In this document: one piece after another, positions 115-25,355 of the stretch | Numbering within the stretch: position 1 is the stretch's first letter | Layout of the letters: every line of letters begins with the position of its first letter | DNA from: Candidatus Tenderia sp. | GTDB taxonomy: Bacteria; Pseudomonadota; Gammaproteobacteria; Tenderiales; Tenderiaceae | DNA length: 64,000 nucleotides | Assembly (NCBI GenBank): GCA_031416075.1 | Contig: JANOSY010000043.1 | Location: 1-64,000 of the forward strand | Direction of reading: 5' to 3' | Notes under the pieces: model-generated | Databases searched by the model: none | The model's input: only the letters and a program-made list of their open reading frames with translations | Told to the model about the DNA's origin: nothing | Position numbers and translations under genes: made by a program

Positions 115-139
115 GTATATTATTTGTTACAGCACACTA
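1..139 (+). mobile_element. Right end of IS630-family insertion sequence with TA target dinucleotide (138-139)
   Basis: Transposase stop is followed by a short tail ending ...CAGCACAC-TA-G. IS630 elements insert at TA, often within CTAG. The left end is outside the window. Confidence 0.7.
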
Positions 140-349
140 GACCCAGGCCAATACACGTATTACAAAACAGCGCGAGCCGTGATTGCTCGAGTAGGCGGAC
201 GACTATCTCACGGCGCCACCTTGCTTCGAGAGCTACAAACCCCCTCAGCCGTCTTACCCCAAATCGATCTAACGTGGCTGGGGCGGAGGGTCACTTACCG
301 CAATGGGGTGCTTACATTGGCGGAGATCACTATCAACCCATCATCATGA
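137..349 (+). pseudogene. 3' remnant of a PEP-utilizing enzyme (phospho-His mobile domain) gene interrupted by IS630
   Basis: From the TA site the frame reads LDPG...ARAVIARVGGRLSHGATLLRELQTPSAV, matching the DPG...GGxLSHGAxxxRExxxP motif of PEP-utilizer mobile domains. Confidence 0.7.
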
Positions 350-429: not shown

Positions 430-1437
430 TTAACGAATAGTGCCACTCTGCATGCCCAGTACTTTCACAAAGGTCTCCGCCATCACCACACCAAACCGCT
501 CCACAAACTGCTGGAACGGGTCTGGTTTAACGGTGTAGTCAACAATGCTCTCTTCACCAATCACATCACGTGCAACATAGCTGGCACTGCCTAAACCATC
601 AGCCAACCCCATCTCAATGGCCTGCTCACCGGTCCAGACAAGCCCTGTAAACAGATCGTCGTTCTCTTTCAACCGATCACCGCGCCCTGTTTTTACCGTC
701 TCTATAAACTGCTGATGGATATTGTCGAGCATGCCGTGAATATGGGTCGCATCCTTCTCTTTCAGTGGTGAGAATGGATCTAAGAAACCTTTATTCTCTC
801 CCGCCGTCAACATCCGCCGTTCAATGCCCAGTTTGCCCATGGCATCAACAAAACCAAAACTGCCCATCACCACGCCGATTGAACCGACAATACTGGCTTT
901 ATCAACATAGATCTCATCCGCAGCGGCGGCTATATAGTATCCACCAGAGGCACACAGATCAGTCACCACTGCATATAAAGGAATGTTGGGATACTTTCCC
1001 CGCAACCGTTTGATCTCATCATTGATATAACCCGCCTGAACCGGACTGCCACCAGGGCTATTGATACGCAAAATAACCCCTGCGGTATGTTTATTCTCAA
1101 AGGCAAGGCGCAAGCTGCTTACTATATTATCTGCACTTGCCTCACTATCCGCCGCTATTACCCCTTGCACTTCAATCAAGGCGGTATGTTTTTTACCCAC
1201 GCCCATGCTGGCACCGTCCTGCCCCACAAACATAAACCCCACAATCGCCAGCAGATAGATGACCATGATTGACTTGAAGAAGATACCCCAGCGCCGCGCA
1301 CGTCGCTGCTCCGTCAACGCCCCCAGTGCCAGTTTGCTGATCAGCTCCTTTTCCCAGTTAGGGTCTTGCTGCTCTTTTACCTGAGGTGCCTGGGTCCAGG
1401 CATCTTTCACCTGACCACTATTATCATGATCTGTCAT
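430..1437 (-). CDS. sppA: Signal peptide peptidase SppA (S49 family)
   Basis: LRINSPGGS, ASGGYYIA and GSIGV motifs; N-terminal TM helix; conserved rluC-HAD-sppA context. Confidence 0.93.
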   Translation of the reverse strand: MTDHDNSGQVKDAWTQAPQVKEQQDPNWEKELISKLALGALTEQRRARRWGIFFKSIMVIYLLAIVGFMFVGQDGASMGVGKKHTALIEVQGVIAADSEASADNIVSSLRLAFENKHTAGVILRINSPGGSPVQAGYINDEIKRLRGKYPNIPLYAVVTDLCASGGYYIAAAADEIYVDKASIVGSIGVVMGSFGFVDAMGKLGIERRMLTAGENKGFLDPFSPLKEKDATHIHGMLDNIHQQFIETVKTGRGDRLKENDDLFTGLVWTGEQAIEMGLADGLGSASYVARDVIGEESIVDYTVKPDPFQQFVERFGVVMAETFVKVLGMQSGTIR

Positions 1438-1468
1438 ATTATTTCCGTTGGTTGTAAACGCTGCTGGA

Positions 1469-2134
1469 TTATAACTTCAAATTACGTTCAAACCATTCCC
1501 CTAACGCAGGAATGCTATCTAGGCTGGCCAAAGGCTGGTATTGATGTAGACGGTGTGGCTCATGGGCACCATAGGTCACCGCCAATGCGGCGGTTCCAGC
1601 CCGTTGTGCCATCTCCATATCATACTCAGTATCACCAATCATCAGTGTCGTTTCAGGCTTGGCACCAAGCTCCTCAATCAACTCCAGCAACATCTGGGGG
1701 TGCGGTTTGGAAGTTGTCTCATCGGCACAACGGGTCGCCTGAAAAAAACGGCCACAATCAGTGTGGCGCAAAACCCTATCCAACCCTTTACGACTCTTGC
1801 CTGTCGCCACCGCCAACATAACAGGCTGCTGGTGCAATCCCGCCAACAGCGCTGGGACCCCCTCAAACAGCTGCTCAGGCATCGGGCAGTTTCCCAAAAA
1901 ATGGTGCCGATACCGGTCGGTATACTGCCAAACATCCTGATCATTAATGGCGGGATAGAGGAAACGAATCGCCTCCTGCATACCCAATCCTATGATGTTA
2001 CGAAAGGCTGTGTCAGTCAGATCCTCAAAACCGAGATCCTGACCCGCCGCCCGTAACGAGGCAACAATCCGGGCGGCAGAGTCCATCAACGTGCCATCCC
2101 AATCAAAAACAACCAATTCAAACGCTCTGGACAT
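1469..2134 (-). CDS. HAD-IA family hydrolase (phosphoglycolate phosphatase-like)
   Basis: FDWDGTLMDS motif I, ATGK, SKPHP and MIGD motifs. Confidence 0.92.
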   Translation of the reverse strand: MSRAFELVVFDWDGTLMDSAARIVASLRAAGQDLGFEDLTDTAFRNIIGLGMQEAIRFLYPAINDQDVWQYTDRYRHHFLGNCPMPEQLFEGVPALLAGLHQQPVMLAVATGKSRKGLDRVLRHTDCGRFFQATRCADETTSKPHPQMLLELIEELGAKPETTLMIGDTEYDMEMAQRAGTAALAVTYGAHEPHRLHQYQPLASLDSIPALGEWFERNLKL

Positions 2135-2144
2135 GCCTACTCAC

Positions 2145-3092
2145 TCACACCAATTGACCTAAAACAGCCTCAAGATCCTCACCCAGCGGTGCCTGAAACT
2201 CCAGACGCCGCCCATCCCACATGAAATAGATGCGCTGGGCATGGAGGAATAGTCGCTTCAGCCCTAACGCTTTCATCTGCTGATTGAACGCCTTATCACC
2301 ATACTTTTCATCCCCCGCCAGTGGGTGGCCAGAATGGGTCGCATGGACACGGATCTGATGGGTACGCCCCGTCATCAACTCCACCTCCATCAAGGTGGCC
2401 GCCTTAAAACGCAGTTGGGGTGTAAAGCGGCTCAACGCCTCCTTACCGGTAGGTGTCACCCGCACCATCCGCTCCCCCGAACTCAGAGTATTTTTCAGCA
2501 GCGGGGCATCAACATCCCGCGCGCCCCCTTTCCACTTCCCCTGACAGAGCGCCAGATAGTGCTTTCCCACCTCACCGTTACGGATCAACTCATGCAGTTG
2601 GCGCAAGGCAGACCGCTTTTTAGCCAACAACAGGCACCCCGAGGTATCACGGTCAAGCCGGTGAACCAACTCCAGCCCCTGCAGCTCAGGTCTCAGCTTT
2701 CGCATCGCCTCAATCACACCGTAACTCACTCCACTGCCACCATGCACAGCAATGCATGAGGGTTTATTGAGCACAATCAACGCATCATCCTCAAACATGA
2801 TGCTCTCCTCAATCTGTCGCAACACCCCTTGACTAGGTGATACTGTGTCGGCAACGGCAGCAGTTTTAAGCGGTGGAATACGCACAATATCACCCGCCTG
2901 AAGCCGATAGAGCGGTTTAATACGCCCTTTATTCACACGCACCTGCCCAGTCCTTAATATTTTGTAAATCATGCTCTTAGGCAGATTACGCAGCTGCGCC
3001 ATCAAAAAATTGTCGATACGCTGCCCGGCACGTTCAGCATCAATTTCAAGGAAACGTGCTTCCATTTTGTCATTTTCAGAATAATCAGTCAT
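2145..3092 (-). CDS. rluC: 23S rRNA pseudouridine(955/2504/2580) synthase RluC
   Basis: S4 domain (GQRIDNFL), HRLDRDTSG, GRTHQIRVH; divergent from rne. Confidence 0.95.
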   Translation of the reverse strand: MTDYSENDKMEARFLEIDAERAGQRIDNFLMAQLRNLPKSMIYKILRTGQVRVNKGRIKPLYRLQAGDIVRIPPLKTAAVADTVSPSQGVLRQIEESIMFEDDALIVLNKPSCIAVHGGSGVSYGVIEAMRKLRPELQGLELVHRLDRDTSGCLLLAKKRSALRQLHELIRNGEVGKHYLALCQGKWKGGARDVDAPLLKNTLSSGERMVRVTPTGKEALSRFTPQLRFKAATLMEVELMTGRTHQIRVHATHSGHPLAGDEKYGDKAFNQQMKALGLKRLFLHAQRIYFMWDGRRLEFQAPLGEDLEAVLGQLV

Positions 3093-3722
3093 TTGTCACC
3101 ATTTTAGGGCGCTATAATAGCTTCTATGGCTCTAGAGAACATGCTATATTTGGGAATGGCGTCGAATCGGCCAGCCGTGCTAGCAAGCATGGATTAACGA
3201 TTCTAACCGCAGATAGCAACAGCTTTTTTCGTTCCGGTTAGATGCGAGCTTTAGTGATCGCAGCTGAACCAAATTAAAAACACGCTGTCATCTGATGGAA
3301 TAGTGCCGATACTGAAACCGTATCTGCCCTGAAGCAAATTTTACCACTCTATGGTGATTCGATGAAAGACCATAGAGAAGCGGCTGAATAAGCGCACGGC
3401 CCTACAGGCCATTTTATTAGTGTTTAATTAACGAACATATGGCGTTCCCGCCCCTGTGTGGCGCGGAAGCTGAACAAGCCCAATCTGTCTGGGGCATGTG
3501 GACCGAGAGTTGGTCAGCTCAATTAAATGGATTCAAACACCTTAGCTAGGTGATAACGCCCTGCTAAGAAGTTAAGTTGAACGTTGCGACCAGTCTCATC
3601 CTGACTCTGCCCGAGTGTGTGGCGGTGTTTTAGATGCGCATTAAGCGCAATGAAACTCCATAGCTTCAGCCTCCCCGTGCTGCCGGTTAAAAGCGCAGTT
3701 ACGCCTCGGAGAATAGTAAAAA
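3093..3722 (+). promoter_or_regulatory. rluC/rne divergent promoter region and long rne 5' leader
   Basis: 630-bp intergenic region; TATAAT at 3113-3118 and TGCTATATT at 3142-3150; rne genes typically carry long autoregulatory leaders. Confidence 0.5.
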
Positions 3723-6251
3723 ATGAAAAGAATGCTCATTAACGCAACTCAAAAAGAGGAGTTGCGTGTTGCTCTTGTTGATGGTCAAAGACTCTACGAC
3801 CTCGACATCGAACTGCCCGGCCGCGAACAGAAAAAGGCCAACATTTACAAGGGTAGAATTACCCGCATCGAACCCAGCTTGGAAGCTGCTTTTGTTGATT
3901 ATGGTGCTGACCGTCACGGCTTTTTGCCGCTAAAAGAGGTCAACCCCATCATATTTGCTAATCAGCCTAGCGATGAAAACAGCCGCCTAAACATTAAAGA
4001 GGTACTGAAAGAGGGGCAAGAGGTCGTTGTTCAGATCGATAAGGAAGAGCGTGGCAACAAAGGAGCCGCCCTCACCACCTTTATCAGTTTGGCAGGCCGC
4101 TACATGGTTCTCATGCCCAACAATCCCCGTGCCGGTGGAGTTTCGCGCCGTATCGAAGGTGATGAACGTAACGAACTGCGCGAGGCGATGGCTGCGCTCA
4201 GCATACCTGAAGGCATGGGGGTCATCGTCCGCACTGCGGGTGTTGGTAAAAGTGTAGAGGAGCTACAGTGGGACTTAGACTATCTACTGCGTCTCTGGTC
4301 TGCTATCGACATCGCCAGCCAAGAGAAAGCCGCCCCGTTTCTGGTCTACCAAGAGAGCAACATCATCATCCGTGCTATCCGCGACTACTTCCGTCAGGAT
4401 ATTGGCGAGATCCTGATCGACTGCAAAGAAGTCTACGATTACGCCCATGATTTCATGACTCAGGTGATGCCTCACAACCTGAAACGGCTCAAACACTACG
4501 ATGACCATGTACCGCTCTTCTCCCGCTATCAGGTAGAGAGCCAGATCGAAACCGCCTTTCAGCACGAAGTACGTCTGCCATCGGGCGGCGCGATCGTCAT
4601 TGACCGGACCGAGGCGTTGGTCTCCATCGACATCAACTCTTCCCGCGCCACCCAGGGCGGCGACATTGAAGAGACCGCTCTTAACACCAATCTTGAAGCC
4701 GCGGATGAGATTGCCCGCCAGCTACGGCTGCGCGACCTGGGCGGTCTGATTGTGATCGACTTTATTGACATGACACCGGCACGCAACCAGCGTGAAGTGG
4801 AAAACCGCATCCGCGACGCACTGAAGGTTGACCGTGCCCGTGTTCAGATTGGCCGTATCTCACGTTTTGGATTGCTGGAGATGTCACGCCAGCGGCTACG
4901 CCCCTCACTGGGCGAGTCGATTCAGGTCGCCTGCCCACGCTGCAAGGGCGAAGGCTCGATCCGTAATGTGGAATCACTGGCACTCTCCATACTCCGCCTC
5001 ATTGAAGAGGAAGCGATGAAAGAGAAGTCTGCCCGTATCGAGGCGCAATTGCCAATTTCGGTGGCCACCTTCCTGCTCAACGAGAAGCGCCAGGCGGTCA
5101 GCGCCATCGAGGCACGCCACAGCATTCACCTTGTTCTGATCCCCAACCCCTCGCTGGAGACCCCAAACTACGAGGTGAAACGGGTCAAGGCTGATGAGTT
5201 GAAAAATCTTGAAAGCACCAACAGTTATCAGATAGTTCAAGAGATTGAGCCTGAAGAGACCACTATGATCCCGCGCCCCACCAAGGTGGAACGCCCAGCG
5301 GTTCAAGGGATTCAACCCACCGCTCCAGCCCCGGCCCCCATTCAGGCCGCCAAGGTATCAACGGCCCAGCGCGAAGCGGAAGTTGGATTTATCAAGCGCC
5401 TCTGGACCTCGCTTTTTGCTGGAAAACCAGGTACCGCTGTTACCAGCGAAACAACAACCAGTAACAGTGAAGCGGAACAAGAAACATCTGCTTCAGCCTC
5501 ACCCCGCAGCAGCGGCCAGGGACAGACCCGGGAGCGTGACGGCAACCGTAACCGCAACTCATCCCGCAGAGGTGGTAATAATCAGCGTAACCGTCGTGGT
5601 GGTCGCACTGGTACAGTGGAAGGTCAGGACAAACCTGAGGCCGCCGTCGAAGCGCCCATCACACCAGCCGCTGCCACCACCGTGGCAACAGCATCCACAG
5701 CGGTAAGTGACAGTGACGAGACTACCGAAACAGCCGCTAACGCCCAACGTCGCAATACCGAGGGACGTCGTGGTCGACGTGGCGGAAATGGACGTCGTCG
5801 TCGGAAACCTTCTGAGCAGGGCGTAGCGACAGCTGAGCCACAAGAGGCCAACGGCAACGTTGCTGTCCAGACGGAGCCAACATCCAGGACTGAACCGGCC
5901 CCCAGGGTCACCGAAAATGCTTCTGGCAACAGCGCCCCTTCACCACAAGAGAGCAGCACACCCCCTCCTCCGGCTGCCGTTGCGCCACAGGATATGCCAC
6001 CACGGGTAGCACGACCACCACGCACACCGCGTAAACCACGGCCGCCTCGTGAACCACGCAACAGTGAGGCCAGCGAAGGTACTGAGACAAAGGAGCCCCG
6101 CAACGAACCTGCCTCCGCACCACAGGAAGCATCCCGCCCAGAATCTGAAGCAGCCAAACCTTCTGCGCCTGTGCAGCGGACCATGGATCTGCCCGCTCAG
6201 ACCCCAGCACCTGTGCAACCAACCAAAGCACCGGATTCTACTCCGGAGTAG
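3723..6251 (+). CDS. rne: Ribonuclease E
   Basis: [30 protein letters not shown] start, S1 domain, CPRC Zn-link, amphipathic [11 protein letters not shown], Arg-rich disordered C-terminus. Confidence 0.98.
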
Positions 6252-16006: not shown

Positions 16007-16669
16007 TTAACCCTGTGCCGTCGCACAACACCCTCTCAAACAGCACTCGCCACACAACGGTTTGGAACGGCACGACCGCTTGGCATGGATCACAATCAAG
16101 GCGTGATATTCGTTAAACAGCTGCGTCTGCTGTGGCCGCTCGGTATGGTTTGCCTTTAACTGATCTTCAAAGTGCTGGCGCAACTCTTCATAACGCTCAT
16201 CCCCCCGGATCAACCCCAACCGCATGAAGATACGACGGGTATAGGCATCAATAACAAAGATCGGGCGGACAAAGGCGTAGAGCAACATATCATCCGCGGT
16301 CTCCGGACCAATGCCATTGACCGAGAGCAGGGCACGCCGCAGCGTGGCATCGTCCCACGTCTGCAGGGCCGCCTCCCCCCCTTGTTGCAACAGCCAGCGA
16401 CAGAAGTTTTGTAGCCGTCGCGCCTTAACGTTGAAGTAGCCCGCAGGACGGATCAACTCAGCCAACTCTGCGGTCTCCAGTGTGACAATGGCCTGGGGAT
16501 CAAGGGCGCTGACCTGTTTAAGATTGGCCATCGCCTTTTCAACATTGCGCCAAGCGGTACTCTGGGTCAGCACCGCACCCACCATCACCTCAAAAGGGGT
16601 ATCCCCCGGCCACCACCCCTGTGGACCGTAGTGGTCAAACAGGGTGGTATAAACACCCCCTACGCTCAC
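16007..16669 (-). CDS. Endonuclease III-related HhH-GPD DNA glycosylase with 4Fe-4S motif
   Basis: WWPGDTPFEVMVGAVLTQ, GIGPETAD, VIDAYTRR, CRSKPLCGECCLRGCC. Confidence 0.9.
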   Translation of the reverse strand: MSVGGVYTTLFDHYGPQGWWPGDTPFEVMVGAVLTQSTAWRNVEKAMANLKQVSALDPQAIVTLETAELAELIRPAGYFNVKARRLQNFCRWLLQQGGEAALQTWDDATLRRALLSVNGIGPETADDMLLYAFVRPIFVIDAYTRRIFMRLGLIRGDERYEELRQHFEDQLKANHTERPQQTQLFNEYHALIVIHAKRSCRSKPLCGECCLRGCCATAQG

Positions 16670-17955
16670 TTACGTGTCTGACGCCGCTTTGGTTGGCGCG
16701 CAGTGGGTGGCCGTGCTGGCTTATCGCCGTCGGGACGGCGTGATGGTTTATCACCCTCGGCACGACGGGGTGGTCTGGCGCTATCGGAACGCGGCGCGGC
16801 CCTATCAGAACGCGGCACGGCCCTGTCACCATCACTACGGCGTGGCGACCGGTCACCTTCCGGACGGCGGGCAGGTTTATCGCCCTCGGCACGACGGGGT
16901 GGTCTGGCGCTATCGGGACGCGGCGCGGCTCTATCAGAACGCGGCGCAGCCCTGTCACCATCACTACGGCGTGGCGACCGGTCACCTTCCGGACGACGGG
17001 CGGATTTATCGCCCTCGGCACGACGCGGTGGTCTGGTACTATCAGAACGTGGTGCGGCTCTATCGCCATCACTACGGCGTGGCGGCTTGTCACCTTCCGG
17101 ACGACGGGCGGGTTTATCGCCCTCGGCACGGCGTGGCGATTTATCTGCAAAGGGATGCCTTACCCCCTTGTTCTCCGGTGTATCACGACTGCTTCTGGTA
17201 CTGGCCACTTCGGCGATCTTGGGCATGCCCACCAGCTGGCGCAGCTCATTTATGGCATCGCGATTAAGCTCATCCCAAGCCCCCGCCTTAAGGCCACGGC
17301 GCAGGGTGATAAAACCAAACCGAACACGGATCAGGCGACTCACCTTCACCCCTTGTGACTCCCAGAGACGGCGCACTTCACGGTTGCGCCCCTCGTTCAG
17401 GGTGACGTGATACCAGTGGTTGGCCCCCTGCCCGCCCGCATCCGTGATGGTATTAAAACGGGCCATGCCATCTTCCAGCTCCACCCCTTGGGTGAGTCGC
17501 TGCAACAGCTCGTTATCCACATCCCCCAATACCCGTGTGGCATATTCACGTTCGATCTCGCTGGAGGGGTGCATCAGCAGATTGGCCAGATCACCATCGG
17601 TGGTCATGAGGATGACACCGCTGGTATTGATGTCGAGCCGTCCCACGGCAATCCAGCGCCCAGACCGTATTGGGGGCAACTTGGCAAAGATGGTGGGGCG
17701 ACCTTCAGGGTCAGAGCGGGTGCAGACCTCCCCCTCCGGTTTGTGGTAGATCAATACCCGTTGCAGGGTTTCGCTGCGCTGCTCCAGACGTAACGCTTTA
17801 CCATCCAGGGCAATGACATCACCCCAATGGGCCTTACCGCCCAGCGTCGCCACCTCACCATTGACGGTGATACGTCCCGCTTCGATCATGCGTTCCACTT
17901 CGCGGCGCGAGCCGACCCCGGCAGTTGCCAGCAGTTTTTGTATACGTTCACTCAT
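16666..17955 (-). CDS. rluB: 23S rRNA pseudouridine(2605) synthase RluB with repeat-expanded C-terminal tail
   Basis: SERIQKLLA S4 domain, VGRLDINTSG, EGRNREVRR; downstream of scpAB. Confidence 0.95.
   Translation of the reverse strand: MSERIQKLLATAGVGSRREVERMIEAGRITVNGEVATLGGKAHWGDVIALDGKALRLEQRSETLQRVLIYHKPEGEVCTRSDPEGRPTIFAKLPPIRSGRWIAVGRLDINTSGVILMTTDGDLANLLMHPSSEIEREYATRVLGDVDNELLQRLTQGVELEDGMARFNTITDAGGQGANHWYHVTLNEGRNREVRRLWESQGVKVSRLIRVRFGFITLRRGLKAGAWDELNRDAINELRQLVGMPKIAEVASTRSSRDTPENKGVRHPFADKSPRRAEGDKPARRPEGDKPPRRSDGDRAAPRSDSTRPPRRAEGDKSARRPEGDRSPRRSDGDRAAPRSDRAAPRPDSARPPRRAEGDKPARRPEGDRSPRRSDGDRAVPRSDRAAPRSDSARPPRRAEGDKPSRRPDGDKPARPPTARQPKRRQTRK
16720..17145. repeat. Coding tandem repeat in the rluB 3' end (units of 129, 129 and 108 nt)
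   Basis: G(G/A)TTTATC(A/G)CCCTCGGCACG recurs at 16745, 16874, 17003 and 17111. Confidence 0.9.
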
Positions 17956-18827
17956 TAGGGTATTGCCACTGTTTTATTATCACGCTCTTCGTCGGCGGGT
18001 TCAGCCAGTGACTCCACCTCCTCTGGTTCTACTTGTTCTGGTTTTACTTGTTCTGGATCTGTTTGTGCTAAATCGATCTGTTCTGGAGCCACCTCTTCTG
18101 GCAACCCACTATCTTCAGGCAACCCAGCCTCTTCATCTATGTCAGCCATGGCCACGGCGACAGCCACAATAGTCTCGTCAGGCTCATCCTCCTCTCCATC
18201 CAGCTGGTCATCTTCACTATCAGCGCGCAACGGGGTAACAGGGGGTTTGGTATCAAACAAGCCAAAATCGAGTTCCCGTTCGATGCTTTCAATATTGCGG
18301 ATCTCCGCCAACGGCGGCAGGTCACTCAGGCTTTTAAGATTAAAGTAGTCGAGAAACTGGCGGGTAGTACCATAGAGCGCCGGTTTGCCCGGCACATCAC
18401 GATAACCGATCACCCGCACCCACTCCCGCTCCAGCAGGCTTTTAACAATATTGGTGCTGACGGCCACACCACGGACATCCTCGATCTCGCCACGAGTGAT
18501 GGGCTGACGATAGGCGATCAACGCCAGTGTCTCCAATACGGCACGGGAGTAGCGTGTTGGCCGCTCTTCCCAAAGGTTGGCAATCCAGCGCGCCAGATCA
18601 GACTTCACTTGAAAACGGTAACCATTGCTCACCTCCACCAGTTCCACACCCCGGCTGACACAATCGCCCTGGAGTGACTCGATGGCGGCGCGAATATCAT
18701 CACGGCTCGGCTGCTCCTCATCCAGAAAGAGCGCCAGGATCTGGTCAATCCCCAGCGGGCGACCTGCCGCCAGCAGCGCCCCCTCGATGATCTGTTGCAA
18801 ACGTTCAGGATTAGGATTCATGGACAT
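17955..18827 (-). CDS. scpB: SMC-Scp complex subunit ScpB
   Basis: SRAVLETLALIAYRQPITRGEIEDVRGV, LYGTTRQFLDYF; acidic tail. Confidence 0.96.
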   Translation of the reverse strand: MSMNPNPERLQQIIEGALLAAGRPLGIDQILALFLDEEQPSRDDIRAAIESLQGDCVSRGVELVEVSNGYRFQVKSDLARWIANLWEERPTRYSRAVLETLALIAYRQPITRGEIEDVRGVAVSTNIVKSLLEREWVRVIGYRDVPGKPALYGTTRQFLDYFNLKSLSDLPPLAEIRNIESIERELDFGLFDTKPPVTPLRADSEDDQLDGEEDEPDETIVAVAVAMADIDEEAGLPEDSGLPEEVAPEQIDLAQTDPEQVKPEQVEPEEVESLAEPADEERDNKTVAIP

Positions 18828-19638
18828 GTTGACGTGTCTTTACATAAATTGGGCCAAAAGGTTCTGTTTGAATAATCTCGATAATGCTCTCTTTGATCAG
18901 TTCAAGGATGGCCAGCAGTGTTACCACCACCCCCATACGCCCCTCTTTATATTCAAACAGCGTTGTAAACTCGGTAAAACTCTCGGCATTCAGCGCTGCC
19001 AGCACATTGGTCATACGTTCGCGTACCGACAGCACTTCGCGCTGAATGTGATGGCTGGCAAACATATCCGTGCGGCGCAATACATCCTGAAAGGCCAGCA
19101 ACAGCTCCTTCAACTCCAGATCCGGCTGCGCCTTGACCACGGTAAGATCCGGCCCCTTGGCACTCGCCTCAAAGATATCGCGCCCCACACGGGGCAGCTC
19201 TTCTATCTCTTCAGCCGCCTGTTTGTAACGCTCATACTCCTGTAGCCGCCGGATCAGCTCAGCCCGTGGATCCTCCTCATCCTCCGAGATGCTCTCGGGG
19301 CGTGGCAACAACATCCGCGACTTAATCTCCGCCAGCATCGCCGCCATCAGCAGATACTCCGCCGCCAGCTCAAAGCGCATATCCTGCATCATATCGATGT
19401 AGGACATGTACTGGTTGGTAATCTCAGCAATGGGTATGTCAAGCACATCGAGATTCTGACGACGAATCAGATAGAGCAGCAGGTCAAGCGGCCCCTCAAA
19501 CGCCTCAAGAAACACCTCCAAAGCATCGGGCGGGATGTAGAGATCCTGCGGCAGCTGGGTGAACGCCTCGCCATTTACCAGGGCGAAAGGTATCTCCTGC
19601 TGTAACGTCAGTTCTGGTGTGGTACTGGTTTCGGTCAT
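18811..19638 (-). CDS. scpA: Segregation and condensation protein ScpA
   Basis: FEGPLDLLLYLIRRQNLD, EDPRAELIRRLQEYE. Confidence 0.96.
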   Translation of the reverse strand: MTETSTTPELTLQQEIPFALVNGEAFTQLPQDLYIPPDALEVFLEAFEGPLDLLLYLIRRQNLDVLDIPIAEITNQYMSYIDMMQDMRFELAAEYLLMAAMLAEIKSRMLLPRPESISEDEEDPRAELIRRLQEYERYKQAAEEIEELPRVGRDIFEASAKGPDLTVVKAQPDLELKELLLAFQDVLRRTDMFASHHIQREVLSVRERMTNVLAALNAESFTEFTTLFEYKEGRMGVVVTLLAILELIKESIIEIIQTEPFGPIYVKTRQHVHES

Positions 19639-19665
19639 TGGTTTGCAGTCAATCCGGAGTTAAAT

Positions 19666-19701
19666 TCCCGCCCCTTTGCAAGGGAAAAGTTAGGGTGGGG
19701 G
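19666..19701 (+). repeat. REP-like palindrome (degenerate), left flank of cassette site
   Basis: TCCCGCCCCTTTGCAAGGGAAAAGTTAGGGTGGGGG resembles CCCTCCCC..GGGGAGGG-TTAGGGTGGGG type extragenic repeats. Confidence 0.4.
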
Positions 19702-19752
19702 TCACATGCTCAACATTCGTACCCACATAAACGCTTCTATCCTCATGCCCAA

Positions 19753-19827
19753 ATACATCGTTCCGCATAACCGGCTGGCAATGAAGCGCAGCGAAATTGC
19801 CAGTCCGCGTTGATGCGGCTTTTAGGC
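19753..19827 (-). mobile_element. Integron attC site (75 bp; R'' mutated to GCCTAAA, R' reads G/ATGTAT)
   Basis: Minus strand GCCTAAA-agccg-CATCAAC-gcggactggcaat-loop-attgccagccg-GTTATG-cggaac-GATGTAT; imperfect palindrome with extrahelical bases, 7 bp after the stop codon. Confidence 0.82.
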
Positions 19828-22800
19828 ATTGAGCTTACCCATCTTCCCGGTCTTTGTGATCGTTAATTACTCGCTCGGCCTCTCGGTCATAGCCGTTCGC
19901 TAAGCCTCTCAAAGTTACAGCAAATCGCTGAAAGCCGGCATTCTCTATTTCTTCCGCCTTGGTTCGGTACTCTTCAGCCAGTTCTCTCTCCGGTTTTTCG
20001 GTTGGGTCAACCCAATGAACACCGCGTGAGTTGTATGTCCCCGTTCTGAATCCGTCACGCATGTCATCAGCTTCACGGTCATTCAATGCGGCAGCGACAG
20101 CGCGGCGTATCCATAAGCCGTCTGGATCGGGTGGGGTATGAATCAATACTTCGCCAATATTGATGAGAGCAACTTCCATATGGCCGGATTCCGTACAGGC
20201 TTCCTTGACCCTTTGGAGCCATTCGGTGAAGCGCTCTTCGCTGAAAGTTCCATCTTTTTGTGTTCCCGGTGGTGTCTTCCACTCATGCAGCAGTCGCCAG
20301 GCATTTGTTGCGATTTCCTTTGATTCCTCGGTGGGTTCTCTCGGCGGCTGATCTTCATTCTTGGAACGGTAGATCAGTCGAATCACCTCACAAAAGAATT
20401 CGGGGTCATTGGCCAGTCTGCTCTCAAGGAGTTGGGGCGTGGCACCACTATGACGGTCGAGCAAGGGAACATATGCCCACTCCACTCTAAAGAGATCGTC
20501 CTGGTTAACCGAAGGCTCCGCCTGAAGATACTTGATCAGTTCTACGATATGGTACCCATCCATGGCGTAGTTAGGCTCATTGGAGGAAAGAGCTGCAAGT
20601 AACGCTCGAACACATTGATTCGTATCGATTGGCTGCTTGTCATGGCGCATCCTTTCCAGGCAGTTGATTGCCGCGTGTGGTCTGCCATGTTCAATGAGTT
20701 TCTCAATAGCAAATGCAAAATCGCCATCCGCCTGATAGGCATTCGCGTCGGTGCGGGTCCAATATTCACTCTCTTGCGCCCGAAGCCAATCAGAAGCGCG
20801 ATCCCATGCTTCCTTGGTAAATGGCAAATAAGCCAGGAATTGTCCTACTTGTTCTGAAGACCAATCAGATTTATCGATAGCGTCGCACCAATCCCAGCCT
20901 TTGAGGTGGTTACGCCGCCAGACAAACCTACTTACCAACGCCTTGCGTTTGCTGTCCGCGGAATCCAGGAAGTGAGGCAAAAGGGTTCGCTCAATGACTG
21001 GATCGGCAATAATGCCAAGTGCGTGCCCTACCTGACCGGGTGAAGAAGCGGATTCGGCAAATCGGATGAGACCATCAGCACCATCTTTCTGAAAGATTTC
21101 CGAGATGGCCGTTTCACGTCGCGTGTCTAGTTTCTTGCGCTGCTCCTCCCAATCGCCGTTCTCTTCGTAGAGATCAAAATCACGATCTGTAAAGAGGTGC
21201 TGATATAAATTGAACGGGTTGGTAGGGGCTAGTTGTTCGGCAACTTGTTCAATACGGGTAATCAGTTCGTCGGGCAATGCCCATTTCGCATCGGAGAACC
21301 GCCGGTGTTTGTTTGTGAATTTCGTGAGATGGTTCCAAATCAAAAGCCGTTGCTCTTCAGGAAGTTCTGAAATGGTGTTGGAGGCGAGAGCCTGGAGAAG
21401 TTGATCAAAAGCGGGGTTAGGCAGGTGATCAAAATGAGCAATCAATGTGGAAAGCCGAGCGGTAACTTGGCCAGCGGCAGCCACCGCAAGTTCCGCGTAA
21501 AAAGATGCCTGCTGCCAGTATTCCTGATGCGTAACACCTTTTTCCCAATCATCGGGGATGGTCTTTCGCCAGCTTGGTTTGTGCGATCCAGAAGAGGTCT
21601 GGTGTTGGCCGGGCAGAAGCTGAATGATCAGATTCCAGGCAATATCCGGCCATTCATTTAGAATCGTCCGCACCGCCACCTTGCGTTTGTCAACAGATGC
21701 CAGCGTTTGTGGCATCCAGGGCAGCAAAATGGTTGAAAGCGAATTGGATGGACGATTGGCCCACTGGCCGCCGGGGTCATGGCTGGCAAGTTCACCAAGC
21801 GCAACACAGACTCGAACTAGATATTGTCCATCCCAGGCAAGCCCTTCTAACGCCCAGAGCAGGCCGGTTAAATAATTGCCGCCGGAAATGCCATTGGCTT
21901 CCTGGGAAAAAAGCTCATCAAAGGGACAGGGCGTCAGACGCATCGCCTTTTCGACCGCATCAAGAAATTCATCTGGAGCGGCTTCGGCCAGGGTGGGCAG
22001 CAAACCGTTCAGGCTACCCCACAAAATCCAATCAGCATCGGTTAGAAGTTCACGTATTACCAATACGCCGGTTACTTCAGCCTTCCCTTGCGAGCAGTTA
22101 CCGCACGCGTCGGGCTGGGTGCCCAGAATAGCCAAACCCTCGGCAATTCCTTTTCGCAACACGTGCGAACACTTCAGCACTTTGCCGTGAATGCTGGCCG
22201 CATATCGCTTTTCGGCAGGAAGCTCAAAAGCGGGGTCTGGCTCTTTCAGTAAGGAAATAGCCAGCGACCTAAACGTATCGAGGTTCTGATCAAGGATGCG
22301 CGATCCTAGCAGTTTCCAAAGTTCAGTTCGATTGACAACTTTCCAGATGCCGTTTTTAAGTGACAACGGGCTGTCGGAGCAGTGCAATATTTCCCGTGCC
22401 TTCTTTAACCACTCGTCATAGCTGATGCCGAGCAACTGGGTTATCGCCTCAAGGTCGCACGGACTCTTGTCTTGCCAAGCGCCAATTAGGACTGCTAAGG
22501 CGAGATAGGTGGCATCGGGGTGATGAGCCCAGTCTGTCGACTGTTCATGAGGCAATGCAAAATTACTTGGAAATTCACTGACTGGCTTGGCAACAAAGAC
22601 ACTTGTCAACTCATCTGGCAAATCGTTCTGAGTGATGCAACCTGCGTGATGATTTCGGTTGTTGGTGAACTCCAGAACACGGCCCCACACCAACCGCGAA
22701 GACTCTGGTCTAAATTGTGAGATGTGAGAGTTTATGAGCGATAACACAACCCCTTCTTCTTCGCCTAAGTCATATCCCAATAGGTAGAAGTTGATGAGAA

Positions 22801-23404
22801 ATTTGTGAAAAACTTCATCAGTCAGGTCTATCCCATTGTTTGCCGCTTTCAAATGGTCACGGATGACGTTTAGTTTCTTGCGTTTTACATTCGAACTAAA
22901 TTTTGCAGTTGCAATGTTCCTAAAGAATCTTCCTGGGTCACTTGGATTAGCCCTAGCATGATTGAAGAGCCAAGCCACTTCAGCGTCGCCTTGAGTAAGC
23001 GGACCTGTGATCAGCGCAATAACATCTTTGTCCTTCGTAAACACATTGGTGTTATTAAAATCATTCCAGGCGGCCTGCATCACTTCGCCAAACAAAGCAC
23101 TACCCTGTGTGATGGAAATGGAATGCTTGACTTGCCCGAGAAGTTTCCACCGCTCCTTGCTGTTCACGTTTTCCACGACAACAACGAGGTCGTCCGTATC
23201 AAAGCCGTCGATCTTGCCCTGTAGTTTGATTTCCGCAATGGGCCAGCAGGGAAGACAAGGGGCATGACCGCCGGTAAGCATCAACGCTACAAATGACGCC
23301 TGGACATGCGCTTCAAAATGAACGCCACCACCGCCGGTGGAGAATGGATTGCTTAGTTTTTTCTTCTTTGCCATCTACGGCCACGCCCGATTTCTTATGC
23401 CTAA
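19759..23404 (-). mobile_element. Solitary integron gene cassette inserted between trpS and scpA
   Basis: GTTAGGC core site at 23405-23399 complements the attC R'' GCCTAA(A); single ORF plus attC; no intI in window. Confidence 0.78.
19835..23374 (-). CDS. 1179-aa hypothetical protein: N-terminal PD-(D/E)xK-like nuclease plus long helical region; candidate defence protein
   Basis: Intact long ORF; GGGGVHFE(21)...DD(61-62)...QVK(81-83) motif; no recognisable Walker A. Confidence 0.85.
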   Translation of the reverse strand: MAKKKKLSNPFSTGGGGVHFEAHVQASFVALMLTGGHAPCLPCWPIAEIKLQGKIDGFDTDDLVVVVENVNSKERWKLLGQVKHSISITQGSALFGEVMQAAWNDFNNTNVFTKDKDVIALITGPLTQGDAEVAWLFNHARANPSDPGRFFRNIATAKFSSNVKRKKLNVIRDHLKAANNGIDLTDEVFHKFLINFYLLGYDLGEEEGVVLSLINSHISQFRPESSRLVWGRVLEFTNNRNHHAGCITQNDLPDELTSVFVAKPVSEFPSNFALPHEQSTDWAHHPDATYLALAVLIGAWQDKSPCDLEAITQLLGISYDEWLKKAREILHCSDSPLSLKNGIWKVVNRTELWKLLGSRILDQNLDTFRSLAISLLKEPDPAFELPAEKRYAASIHGKVLKCSHVLRKGIAEGLAILGTQPDACGNCSQGKAEVTGVLVIRELLTDADWILWGSLNGLLPTLAEAAPDEFLDAVEKAMRLTPCPFDELFSQEANGISGGNYLTGLLWALEGLAWDGQYLVRVCVALGELASHDPGGQWANRPSNSLSTILLPWMPQTLASVDKRKVAVRTILNEWPDIAWNLIIQLLPGQHQTSSGSHKPSWRKTIPDDWEKGVTHQEYWQQASFYAELAVAAAGQVTARLSTLIAHFDHLPNPAFDQLLQALASNTISELPEEQRLLIWNHLTKFTNKHRRFSDAKWALPDELITRIEQVAEQLAPTNPFNLYQHLFTDRDFDLYEENGDWEEQRKKLDTRRETAISEIFQKDGADGLIRFAESASSPGQVGHALGIIADPVIERTLLPHFLDSADSKRKALVSRFVWRRNHLKGWDWCDAIDKSDWSSEQVGQFLAYLPFTKEAWDRASDWLRAQESEYWTRTDANAYQADGDFAFAIEKLIEHGRPHAAINCLERMRHDKQPIDTNQCVRALLAALSSNEPNYAMDGYHIVELIKYLQAEPSVNQDDLFRVEWAYVPLLDRHSGATPQLLESRLANDPEFFCEVIRLIYRSKNEDQPPREPTEESKEIATNAWRLLHEWKTPPGTQKDGTFSEERFTEWLQRVKEACTESGHMEVALINIGEVLIHTPPDPDGLWIRRAVAAALNDREADDMRDGFRTGTYNSRGVHWVDPTEKPERELAEEYRTKAEEIENAGFQRFAVTLRGLANGYDREAERVINDHKDREDG

Positions 23405-23416
23405 CATGAGACTCGA

Positions 23417-23447
23417 CTTCCCAACCATCCCCCGGCAAGAGGGGACT
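23417..23447 (-). repeat. REP-like palindrome (degenerate), right flank, inverted relative to the left copy
   Basis: CTTCCCAACCATCCCCCGGCAAGAGGGGACT immediately after the trpS stop; may also act as a terminator or pause hairpin. Confidence 0.35.
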
Positions 23448-23450
23448 GGC

Positions 23451-24668
23451 TCAACGATACTCCAACCCCATCGCCCGCCTGACCTCTTCCAGTGTCTTAC
23501 GAGTCACTTCACGGGCGGCATCACAGCCATCATTCACAATGCTGCGTACCAGATTGGGGTTGGCCGTCAGCTCGGCGGCCCGCTCCCGCATCGGTGCCAG
23601 TTCGGTAATCACCGCATCGATCACCGGCTGTTTGCACTCCAGACAGCCGATACCGGCAGAGCGGCACCCCTGCTGCACCCATGCCTTCACCTCCTCATCA
23701 GAGTAGACCTGATGCAGCTGCCAGACCGGGCACTTGTCCGGATCACCCGGATCGGTACGGCGCACCCGGGCCGGATCGGTAGGCATGGTACGCAGCTTCT
23801 TCTCCACCTCAGTCGGCTCTTCACGCAGGCTGATGGTATTGCCGTAGGATTTGGACATCTTCTGGCCATCCAGCCCTGGCATCTTTGACGCCGGCGTCAG
23901 CAGCGGCTGCGGTTCTGGCAGGATGATCTTGCCACCCCCTTCAAGATAGCCAAACAGCCGCTCACGATCGCCCAGAGTGACGTTCTGCTGGCTCTCCAGC
24001 AGTGCACGGGCCGTGGCCAGCGCCTCAACATCACCCTTTTCCTGATAACGTTTACGCAACTCACTGTAGAGCTTGGCGTTTTTCTTGCCCATTTTCCGCA
24101 CCGCCGCACCGGCCTTCTCTTCAAAGTCCGGTTCACGTCCATACAGGTGGTTAAAACGGCGCGCCACTTCACGGGTCAGTTCAATATGGGAGACCTGATC
24201 TTCACCCACCGGTACCAGGCCCGCCTTATATATAAGAATGTCGGCACTCTGCAACAGCGGATAGCCAAGAAAGCCATAGGTGGCCAGATCCTTCTCTTTG
24301 AGTTTTTCCTGCTGATCTTTATAGGTGGGCACCCGCTCCAGCCACCCCAGCGGTGTGATCATACTCAGCAACAGATGCAGCTCGGCATGTTCCGGCACTC
24401 GCGACTGGATAAAGATCTTGGCTGAACCGGGGTTAACCCCCGCGGCCAGCCAGTCAATAATCATCTCCCAGACGCTGTTGGCAATGCCGCCGACGTTGTC
24501 ATACTCGGTTGTCAGTGCGTGCCAGTCGGCAGCAAAAAAGAAACACTCATACTGATGTTGGAGCTTGACCCAATTTTTAAGCACACCGTGATAGTGGCCA
24601 AGATGGAGCCTTCCGGTGGCACGCATGCCTGAGAGGACGCGCTGATGTTGAGCTGGTACCGTATTCAA
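23451..24668 (-). CDS. trpS: Tryptophan--tRNA ligase
   Basis: HLGH (HIGH) motif, YPLLQSADIL, VPVGEDQ, KMSKS. Confidence 0.97.
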   Translation of the reverse strand: MNTVPAQHQRVLSGMRATGRLHLGHYHGVLKNWVKLQHQYECFFFAADWHALTTEYDNVGGIANSVWEMIIDWLAAGVNPGSAKIFIQSRVPEHAELHLLLSMITPLGWLERVPTYKDQQEKLKEKDLATYGFLGYPLLQSADILIYKAGLVPVGEDQVSHIELTREVARRFNHLYGREPDFEEKAGAAVRKMGKKNAKLYSELRKRYQEKGDVEALATARALLESQQNVTLGDRERLFGYLEGGGKIILPEPQPLLTPASKMPGLDGQKMSKSYGNTISLREEPTEVEKKLRTMPTDPARVRRTDPGDPDKCPVWQLHQVYSDEEVKAWVQQGCRSAGIGCLECKQPVIDAVITELAPMRERAAELTANPNLVRSIVNDGCDAAREVTRKTLEEVRRAMGLEYR

Positions 24669-24701: not shown

Positions 24702-25355
24702 TCAGATACTGAAGAGAGTGTAGATCAAATCGATTAACGCCCCCATGGGCGGGTTCATGATGCTGGACAAAATCTCCGTCGCCAGCAGCCCCAACAGAAT
24801 AAAAAAGCCGTACGGCTCAATCTTGTCATATTTATAAGAGAGCGGGCCGGGCAGCAGTCCCGAGACCACCCGGCCGCCATCCAGCGGTGGCAGCGGCAGA
24901 AGATTCAGTACCATCAACGCGATGTTGATGAAAATCCCGGCTGCGCCCATGTAGATCAACGGCTGGCCAATAAACGGGGCCGTGGCGATGGTCAACATGC
25001 CGATCTTAACCACCAGTGCCCAGATCAGCGCCATCAATAGATTTGCAATCGGCCCCGCCAGCGCCACAATGGCCATGTCCCGCTTTGGGTTGCGCAGGTT
25101 GCGCCAGGTGACCGGTACCGGCTTGGCCCAGCCGAAGATAAAACCACCCAGCATCAGCAGGATAATAGGCACCAGCACTGTACCCACAGGATCGATATGT
25201 TTCAGCGGGTTAAGTGTCAATCGCCCCATCATCATCGCCGTTGGATCGCCGAGCCGTTTGGCTACCCAGCCGTGGGCCACCTCATGCACCGTAATGGCAA
25301 ACAAAACCGGCAGTGACCAGACCGCTACCTTCTGTATCAAGCTCAACTCATTCAT
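24702..25355 (-). CDS. Site-2 protease family (M50) membrane metalloprotease
   Basis: HEVAH, AGPIAN, NLLPLPPLDGG. Confidence 0.94.
   Translation of the reverse strand: MNELSLIQKVAVWSLPVLFAITVHEVAHGWVAKRLGDPTAMMMGRLTLNPLKHIDPVGTVLVPIILLMLGGFIFGWAKPVPVTWRNLRNPKRDMAIVALAGPIANLLMALIWALVVKIGMLTIATAPFIGQPLIYMGAAGIFINIALMVLNLLPLPPLDGGRVVSGLLPGPLSYKYDKIEPYGFFILLGLLATEILSSIMNPPMGALIDLIYTLFSI

Follow-up and report, generated by a model that had tools for sequence, protein, structure and literature searches.

Integron gene cassettes are usually far smaller than 3.6 kb. In literature of the 1990s, the aadB resistance cassette was reportedly found at secondary sites in an RSF1010 derivative and in pRAY. 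Genomic insertion sites of cassettes, named attG, were described with a 5'-GWT-3' consensus and cleavage after the G, and 3400 SALINs were counted in 21,105 genomes (Loot et al., 10.1101/2022.09.11.507474). The accessible text of the same source states that genome-inserted cassettes are expressed near resident promoters and that their excision is occasional and sometimes imprecise (10.1101/2022.09.11.507474). Defence cassettes in integrons (BRiCs) have been described as well, and the accessible part of that work mentions close homologues of such cassettes outside integrons (10.1101/2024.07.02.601719). Here, a 3646-bp integron gene cassette between trpS and scpA of Candidatus Tenderia sp. (assembly GCA_031416075.1, hereafter G000) is analysed. 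The DNA under study, called the window, is a stretch of 64,000 nt from contig JANOSY010000043.1 (C43). The cassette is a genuine one, located outside any array. As the best explanation overall, given a probability of about two in three, it would have been inserted by an integrase at an attG-type site, would now be hard to excise, would be read from the operon of trpS and would carry an anti-phage cargo.

The aadB insertions are said to be similar: a precisely inserted cassette, with its attC, occupies a secondary site resembling G-W-T and is expressed from a resident promoter; they concern plasmids, antibiotic resistance and clinical settings, whereas the present insertion is chromosomal and environmental, with a cargo unrelated to resistance. 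With the SALINs, as far as the accessible text characterises them, the locus shares its content (one coding sequence and one attC, no other attC or intI nearby), a presumed target triplet G/AT (the slash marks the crossover) fitting 5'-GWT-3' with cleavage after the G, and a cassette in sense orientation downstream of a resident promoter, which is necessary for expression in those insertions (10.1101/2022.09.11.507474). It differs by its size of 3.6 kb, by the presence of the cassette in many phyla, by the change of AAC to AAA in R'', by the absence of the expected empty site from the nearest relative, which lacks a further 66 nt, and by being an off-array copy in a lineage with a chromosomal integron of its own. 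Like the BRiCs, it combines an integron cassette with a phage-defence-like cargo; those come from mobile integrons and were phage-tested, in the part of that work accessible, whereas here the defence role is predicted, without a PADLOC match, and the cassette stands alone off-array (10.1101/2024.07.02.601719). The original prediction, made from the sequence of the window, had presented a cassette outside any integron as a novelty. This claim fails, because off-array insertion and expression of cassettes are already published (10.1101/2022.09.11.507474, in its accessible part). While SALIN/attG insertion and defence cassettes are known, two points are new: a nuclease-plus-solenoid family is carried as an integron cassette that has a conserved attC of its own, and a natural off-array insertion into a housekeeping operon is well bounded.

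The cassette and its attC site

Comparison with copies in other genomes clearly set the limits of the cassette. BLAST similarity to these copies runs from 23405/23404 to 19759 and stops on both sides, so that the cassette proper is the 3646-bp segment 19759..23404, and the boundaries proposed earlier (23405 and 19759) are confirmed. On the left, a G at 23405 is followed by TTAGGC (23404-23399), 24 nt before the ATG at 23374. The layout is that of a 30-nt leader and one open reading frame (ORF) pointing towards the attC. R'' (GCCTAAA) begins at 19827, 7 nt past the stop codon, and the attC covers 75 nt down to 19753 with the boxes L'' = CATCAAC and L' = GTTATG. The right junction reads ...AACG/ATGTAT with the G at 19759, which gives G/AT as the presumed target triplet. 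All sequence features on which the original prediction was built (the G/TTAGGC, its distance to the ATG, the attC, the boxes and the right junction) were found where it had placed them.

A covariance model (R1) was built on 10 attC sites, each located behind a homologous ORF of another genome, the window being excluded. It matched 19753-19827 on the minus strand over its full length (80.1 bits, E 3e-20), in agreement with the proposed attC. No other match was obtained at E<=5 in the window. With filters off, no second attC was detected in 19400-23800, where the next best match was the opposite strand of the same site (E 0.13). The window thus holds a single attC and contig C43 shows no match to the integrase profile TIGR02249, as expected of a SALIN; the solitary cassette outside any array, co-oriented with trpS and scpA, was correctly recognised. 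The accompanying statement that no integrase or second cassette is present is right for the window and wrong for the genome, in which at least seven further attC matches lie on five other contigs.

The attC structure was named by hand and its pairs were then counted. In 11 aligned sites, 85.2% of 297 cells were paired, versus 22-37% when the partners were slid by 1-3 columns. Covariation did not support the structure in these 11 sites, because they are too alike: a single double-change pair was found, no better than in shuffles. RNAalifold returned no structure when 18 attC sites were aligned as a mixed set. C16, G20 and A24, on the 5' arm, are unpaired throughout the 11 sites. The DNA fold of the window attC reaches -21.4 kcal/mol (z -2.71). 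The first 69 nt are identical to the attC of a copy in another genome (L021) at 67 positions, the differences being C7A (AAC to AAA) and A9G, and both sites diverge directly after G69, which is window position 19759. The canonical R box, with R'' ending in AAC paired with R' GTTRRRY, is absent from the window: R'' reads GCCTAAA and R' reads GATGTAT. R'' has AAC in 10/10 other sites of this attC type and R' has GTT in 7/11. Pairing of R'' with R' is limited in the window to one Watson-Crick and two G-T pairs of 7, compared with 6/7 in L021.

As G000 is a metagenome-type assembly of 95 contigs, a cassette of another organism could have been joined wrongly to the contig during assembly or binning, and cassette copies of other organisms do occur in related samples (about 95% identical in run X5, in another context). 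Contigs of run X2, which is a different sample, bridge both junctions (19526-19950 and 22992-23624) with 0 differences, and the flanks on both sides are syntenic with those of the relative G003. An artefact is therefore hardly credible. The G+C content of the cassette is 0.507, that of the genome 0.528 and that of trpS 0.573.

The features of the locus are collected in Table 1. The gap between trpS and the ORF is 76 nt and that between the ORF and scpA 196 nt; cassette, trpS and scpA all lie on the minus strand.

Table 1. Coordinates of the features of the trpS-scpA locus in the window, in gene order, and of further attC sites in G000 (contig:position).
Feature	Position	Strand	Basis or remark
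M50-type peptidase gene	24702..25355	minus	first in gene order, before trpS
trpS (tryptophanyl-tRNA synthetase), upstream operon gene	23451..24668	minus	Pfam tRNA-synt_1b, E 1.2e-62
Left spacer segment, 41 nt, missing in the G003 empty site	23406..23446	minus	ends just before G 23405 abutting the cassette
Integron gene cassette itself, 3646 bp, beginning with TTAGGC... and ending with the crossover G	19759..23404	minus	limits of similarity to copies in other genomes
Cassette leader, 30 nt (TTAGGCATAAG...), conserved among copies	23375..23404	minus	
Cargo ORF, 1179 aa	19835..23374	minus	
Predicted N-terminal Cap4-type PD-(D/E)xK nuclease-like domain, about residues 1-265	22580..23374	minus	AF2 model, Foldseek, VIA-align
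Predicted C-terminal module, about 900 aa: small winged-helix-like start, then alpha-helical solenoid	19838..22537	minus	AF2 model
attC, 75 nt	19753..19827	minus	R1 covariance model match
attC part belonging to the cassette, 69 nt	19827-19759	minus	
Half of R' presumed to derive from the target, ATGTAT	19758-19753	minus	
Right spacer segment, 25 nt, missing in G003	19734..19758	minus	holds the cassette-5'-end-like motif from 19752
Spacer common to window and G003, 95 nt	19639..19733	minus	
scpA, downstream gene	18811..19638	minus	Pfam SMC_ScpA, E 4.5e-35
scpB	17955..18827	minus	Pfam SMC_ScpB, E 1.1e-51
Pseudouridine synthase gene	16666..17955	minus	last in gene order, after scpB
Further attC sites in G000	C3:2285-2389; C61:1202-1268; C73:872-994/1259-1361/1626-1728; C93:41-143; C32:6757-6823		R2
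Two more attC-like sites near contig starts	C58:~138-198; C26:~136-186		

Cargo protein and copies in other genomes

The 1179-aa cargo protein had no match in Pfam, PADLOC or the PDB sequences, and NCBIfam gave a chance-level match only (E 0.025). For residues 1-290, no Pfam family was obtained even at E<=10, and no PDB sequence or profile match either. The AF2 model of this region (pLDDT 95.6) points to a Cap4-type nuclease fold. Foldseek retrieved LmuA (9hr5_A, E 3e-6) for the nuclease-like domain, and also Cap4, Avs3 and HamA. In VIA-align, the best scores were those of Avs3 (8dgc_A; Z 14.3, 213 residues aligned, root-mean-square deviation 3.6) and LmuA (9hr5_A; Z 14.2), followed by CBASS Cap4 (6wam_B; Z 12.9), HerA-DUF4297 (Z 12.5) and HamA (Z 10.8); against the nucleases of Avs3, LmuA and Cap4 overall, Z was 12.6-14.3. 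The same fold is thus seen in the Cap4-type domains of Avs3 (8dgc), LmuA (9hr5, 9nxx), Cap4 (6wam, 6vm6), HerA-DUF4297 (9c1m) and HamA (8zue), with about 190-230 residues aligned and Z 10.8-14.3 at an identity of only 10-13%. Among 73 sequences, E21, D61 and D62 never vary, and conservation of Q81 and K83 is 90% or more; on this ground, they may be active-site residues.

Residues 280-1179 were modelled almost entirely as helices (pLDDT 86.1). A fold search with this solenoid returned generic HEAT/ARM repeat proteins only (TM-score about 0.15). As in Avs3, the nuclease stands at the N-terminus of a large presumed sensor protein. The central STAND NTPase module of Avs is absent, as no Pfam family matches in the 1179 aa and residues 280-1179 form helical repeats. 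Unlike the described Cap4-type systems, the cargo comes without a STAND NTPase, SAVED or SMC partner, and the remainder of the protein is the helical solenoid. DSR2 is a single-protein defence made of an effector head and a helical-repeat sensor. The cargo family resembles it in that enzymatic heads of several kinds are joined to a long helical body, SIR2 among them in relatives of the cargo; the likeness is one of architecture only, since no PADLOC model, among which DSR would be included, matches the solenoid.

The protein family is large (6758 cluster representatives at E<=0.001), and its heads vary. Among eight chosen variants, the solenoid carries SIR2_2 (2), FRG (1), DUF4062 (1), GT4-conflict (1), Metallophos (1) or a head without Pfam match (2). 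PADLOC defence models match 4/8 of these heads and none covers the solenoid. Several homologues stand in type I restriction-modification operons: between hsdS and hsdR (L049), after hsdM-hsdS (L056) and after hsdS (L045). In L044, an Eco57I-type methylase precedes the homologue, and downstream there is a weak PglZ match (BREX-like). Names are lacking for the family: the protein atlas clusters and six cluster proteins give 'hypothetical protein' at most, and a literature search for DUF4062, FRG, SIR2 and Cap4 together found no printed description. Fold, domain swapping and gene neighbourhoods suggest that the cargo is probably an uncatalogued single-protein phage defence with a swappable effector. 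In such a protein, the helical solenoid of about 900 aa would sense infection and restrain the DNA nuclease head of Cap4 type.

Two sets of distant relatives of the solenoid were also noticed. At G000:C15:25658-26656 (L108), a 454-aa open frame shows 29% identity to residues 836-1169 of the cassette protein and is a short relative of the C-terminal end of the solenoid. On plasmids of Rhizobium, Bradyrhizobium and Arthrobacter (matches H6, H7, H10-H12), relatives with 27-29% identity are annotated as helix-turn-helix regulators, which suggests yet another N-terminal head.

In a scan with one genome per species, 67 loci encode relatives of the ORF, with a best-segment identity of 45-88% and one outlier at 28%. 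They belong to Gammaproteobacteria, Desulfobacterota, Chlorobi, Cyanobacteria, Planctomycetota, Verrucomicrobiota, Anaerolineae and Firmicutes, and also to two contigs of archaeal metagenome-assembled genomes. An attC match directly follows the ORF in 16 of the 67 loci, and 11 of these sites are of the same 75-nt type. The same TTAGGCAT... leader precedes the ATG in 15 loci; in the window, the leader is the top match of the corresponding position weight matrix (22.4 bits). With a broadened attC model (R2), further attC were detected in five loci (seven matches in L060, three each in L035 and L029, two each in L021 and L048), and the cassette copies there therefore lie in arrays. An intI scoring over the curated cut-off is present in three of five genomes with cassette copies. 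In the other 11 of the 16 loci, the fetched flanks contain no second attC, and the crossover triplets of the 12 sites of this attC type, window included, are GTT (7), GCT (3), GTC (1) and GAT (1). Because of these 11 loci and of the 5/12 sites with a non-GTT triplet, off-array landings of this cassette may be common.

The window copy is a mosaic. The L021/L026/L041 type is matched at 86-90% identity by cassette nt 1-407 and 868-3646. The part in between (nt 408-867, window about 22538-22997) is of low G+C content (0.44-0.45) and matches the L020 type only (84.5%). From these identities, variants of the family are read as having recombined in the cargo gene, inside the nuclease domain and as far as the domain boundary. 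Sequenced plasmids yielded no close copy of the cassette; 34 records contain relatives, with 49.7% identity at best. In run X5, a biofilter metagenome, the ORF copy mentioned above is deeply covered (word depth about 162). Divergence of its flanks sets in at the ORF ends, with loose ends at 19823 and 23374, and the gene is there without this attC or leader. In three other loci (L023, L038 and L047), the frame is interrupted by a stop far ahead of its expected end (locus positions 5728, 6529 and 4363), and these are probably broken copies.

The trpS-scpA spacer and the route of entry

In the favoured account, an integron integrase would have joined the folded attC of the circular cassette to a non-canonical genomic site of the attG type. 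A crossover after a G followed by AT would give G/TTAGGC at the left end and ...AACG/ATGTAT at the right end. The junctions, G/TT on the left and G/AT on the right, fit 5'-GWT-3' with crossover after the G, the target itself being presumed. The cassette appears recent and foreign in this lineage: its ORF was found in none of 16 family relatives, and in G003, the closest relative with an empty site, trpS and scpA are adjacent without the cassette, with flanks 96% identical to those of the window. Integrase-mediated off-array insertion is favoured at about two in three.

The integrase could be the lineage's own, before its loss, or a transient one. A search of G000 for intI found none; an intI over the cut-off is nevertheless present in 8/10 family relatives (483 bits in G003). 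The intI of G003 is followed by attI and cassettes (G003:C16:61652-62590, L102). The DNA flanking it matches contig C33 of G000 up to 146 bp before intI. C33 then continues with 209 bp (C33:44127-44335; L106:528-736) coding for the C-terminus of a DDE transposase (rve_2/rve_3; rve_2 E 1.9e-7), an insertion sequence (IS) fragment in which the contig ends. The integrase of G000 would thus be either lost, possibly to an IS, or unassembled. The seven further attC matches in G000, obtained with R2, have canonical GGCTAAC...GTTAGCC ends and differ in type from the attC of the 3.6-kb cassette. The three sites of C73 fall within 900 bp, and most sites occur on small contigs or close to a contig end. 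They have the appearance of fragments of a broken chromosomal cassette array in the same genome.

The cassette would now be hard to excise, as the right half of R' would be target DNA, R'' has AAA for AAC and the assembly holds no intI. Low mobility is plausible because the R box is reduced to the few pairs given above and no intI was found. As to expression, a consensus scan gave 0 promoter-like sites in 19500-23700. Three terminator-like sites were counted, under the shuffled mean of 4.8, and none of them lies at the junctions. Read-through of the cargo gene from the trpS promoter is likely, because the cassette itself lacks a promoter-like site and shares the direction of trpS and scpAB. 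Transcription through the cassette into scpAB is likely too, given that no promoter- or terminator-like site occurs at the junctions and that scpA starts 10 nt after trpS in sister species.

Several observations weigh against this account. The best TIGR02249 match in the G000 assembly reaches 86.7 bits for a cut-off of 265. Immobility is uncertain, with other attC in the genome, relatives with intI and the intI-syntenic locus at a contig edge; moreover, cassettes inserted into a genome can undergo excision (10.1101/2022.09.11.507474, accessible text). The defence role is suggested by fold and context, and the protein as a whole matches no PADLOC model. The empty site is the most direct difficulty. 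The matching pieces of G003 abut at G003:C14:53004/53003, which correspond to window positions 23447 and 19733. When the cassette was removed in silico, 23406-23446 (41 nt) and 19734-19758 (25 nt) were still without partner in G003. The indel is exactly 19734..23446 (3713 bp), more than the cassette alone. Relatives had been predicted to break at 19759/23405; the breakpoints in G003 are 23446/23447 and 19733/19734, which formally goes against the original prediction. The flanks joined at the crossover were found in no relative searched. Integration at a chromosomal GAT site keeps its fit to the attG consensus and lacks the empty site foreseen. The 66 flank nucleotides were absent, without cassette, from the own genome and the 67 cassette loci (BLAST; chance matches of 11-16 nt), and exact patterns (the 26-nt trpS end and 22 nt of the left flank) gave 0 matches in metagenome contigs. 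A 71-nt query against 400 genomes of the class returned only the trpS end of G003 (24 nt) and one 32-nt match with 84% identity. In runs X2-X5, no cassette-skipping joint was seen; the junctions are not bridged by the contigs of X3 and X4, which stop in low-depth sequence at 23445, 19729 and 19759 and are uninformative. Finally, the right flank contains a motif resembling a cassette 5' end 6 nt beyond the crossover (TTGGGCATGAGGAT), which pairs with R'' in the predicted DNA fold. A simple attG event does not predict this motif.

Three readings of the 66-nt discrepancy can be considered: an independent 66-nt indel, the transfer of a 3713-bp block, and a complex history at a landing site used more than once. 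In three other species of the genus, trpS and scpA are separated by no more than about 10 nt, and these species cannot polarise the change. Loss of the cassette from G003 by imprecise integrase excision was rejected as a full explanation, since the 25 nt to the right of the crossover should remain there and G003 does not have them.

In the second reading, the segment 19734..23446 would have arrived as one block with 41 and 25 nt of foreign flank, without any integron integrase, for example by transformation followed by illegitimate or short-homology recombination, the donor copy being already off-array. The indel relative to G003 has exactly this extent, the 66 extra nucleotides occur nowhere else in the genome and the assembly has no intI. 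Natural transformation has also been reported to drive cassette recombination in chromosomal integrons (PMC12614218, in its accessible part). Yet neither the 67 cassette loci nor two metagenome scans nor the 400 genomes of the class yielded a donor with these flanks. At 23446/23447 and 19733/19734, neither direct repeats nor microhomology can be seen. The spacer changes fast, with a difference of about 10% between G000 and G003, so that an independent 66-nt indel is equally possible. Taken together, arrival as a block is considered unlikely.

The third reading starts from the right flank, whose resemblance to a cassette 5' end supports a complex history. An integrase would have used the spacer as a landing site more than once, or a mini-array would have decayed there. 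Entry of the cassette would have taken place at a canonical core-like site (G/TTRRRY), the original R' being displaced later by small insertions of 6 nt at the crossover and of about 20 nt on the left. If ATGTAT (19758-19753) is ignored, the attC is continued by TTGGGCAT, which would restore a canonical R' (GTTGGGC), and in the DNA fold TTTGGGCAT is the pairing partner of R'', AAA included. In a position weight matrix of 15 cassette 5' ends, the motif at 19752 scores 9.9 bits and ranks 9 of about 128,000 positions. Weaker motifs of the same kind are at 23424 (rank 85) and 19713 (rank 166), the spacer of G003 (L009) has a 14.2-bit site, G/TTAGGCATGTGA, at the orthologous place, and the other species of the genus have no such spacer. 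Against this history, several extra events are needed, no second attC is present in either flank with filters off, and a match of 14.3 bits within an unrelated gene at window position 4120 shows that such scores arise by chance. Entry at a canonical site of this kind is rather improbable. As an observation in its own right, boundary-like motifs (G/TTRRGCAT...) cluster in the spacers of both G000 and G003, at 19752-19739, 23424-23409 and 19713-19698 (minus strand) in the window. They are possibly a relic of earlier integrase events.

Significance of the insertion

No new kind of element is revealed by this locus. It offers a clean natural example of an off-array cassette, with boundaries set by many independent copies, which is rare among field examples. 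A wider reading can be put forward only tentatively: a single-protein defence not described before, consisting of a Cap4-type nuclease on a solenoid sensor of about 900 aa, would be packaged as a cassette, spread across phyla at about 88-90% nucleotide identity and land repeatedly off-array (5/12 non-GTT sites). Here it would be wired into an essential housekeeping operon, at a spacer with several boundary-like motifs that is maybe a recurrent landing pad of the integrase. The integron cassette provides a concrete vehicle for the spread of the nuclease-plus-solenoid family across phyla. In Candidatus Tenderia, it would put a large defence-like gene under the control of a housekeeping promoter, and scpAB, the chromosome-segregation genes, lie directly downstream.

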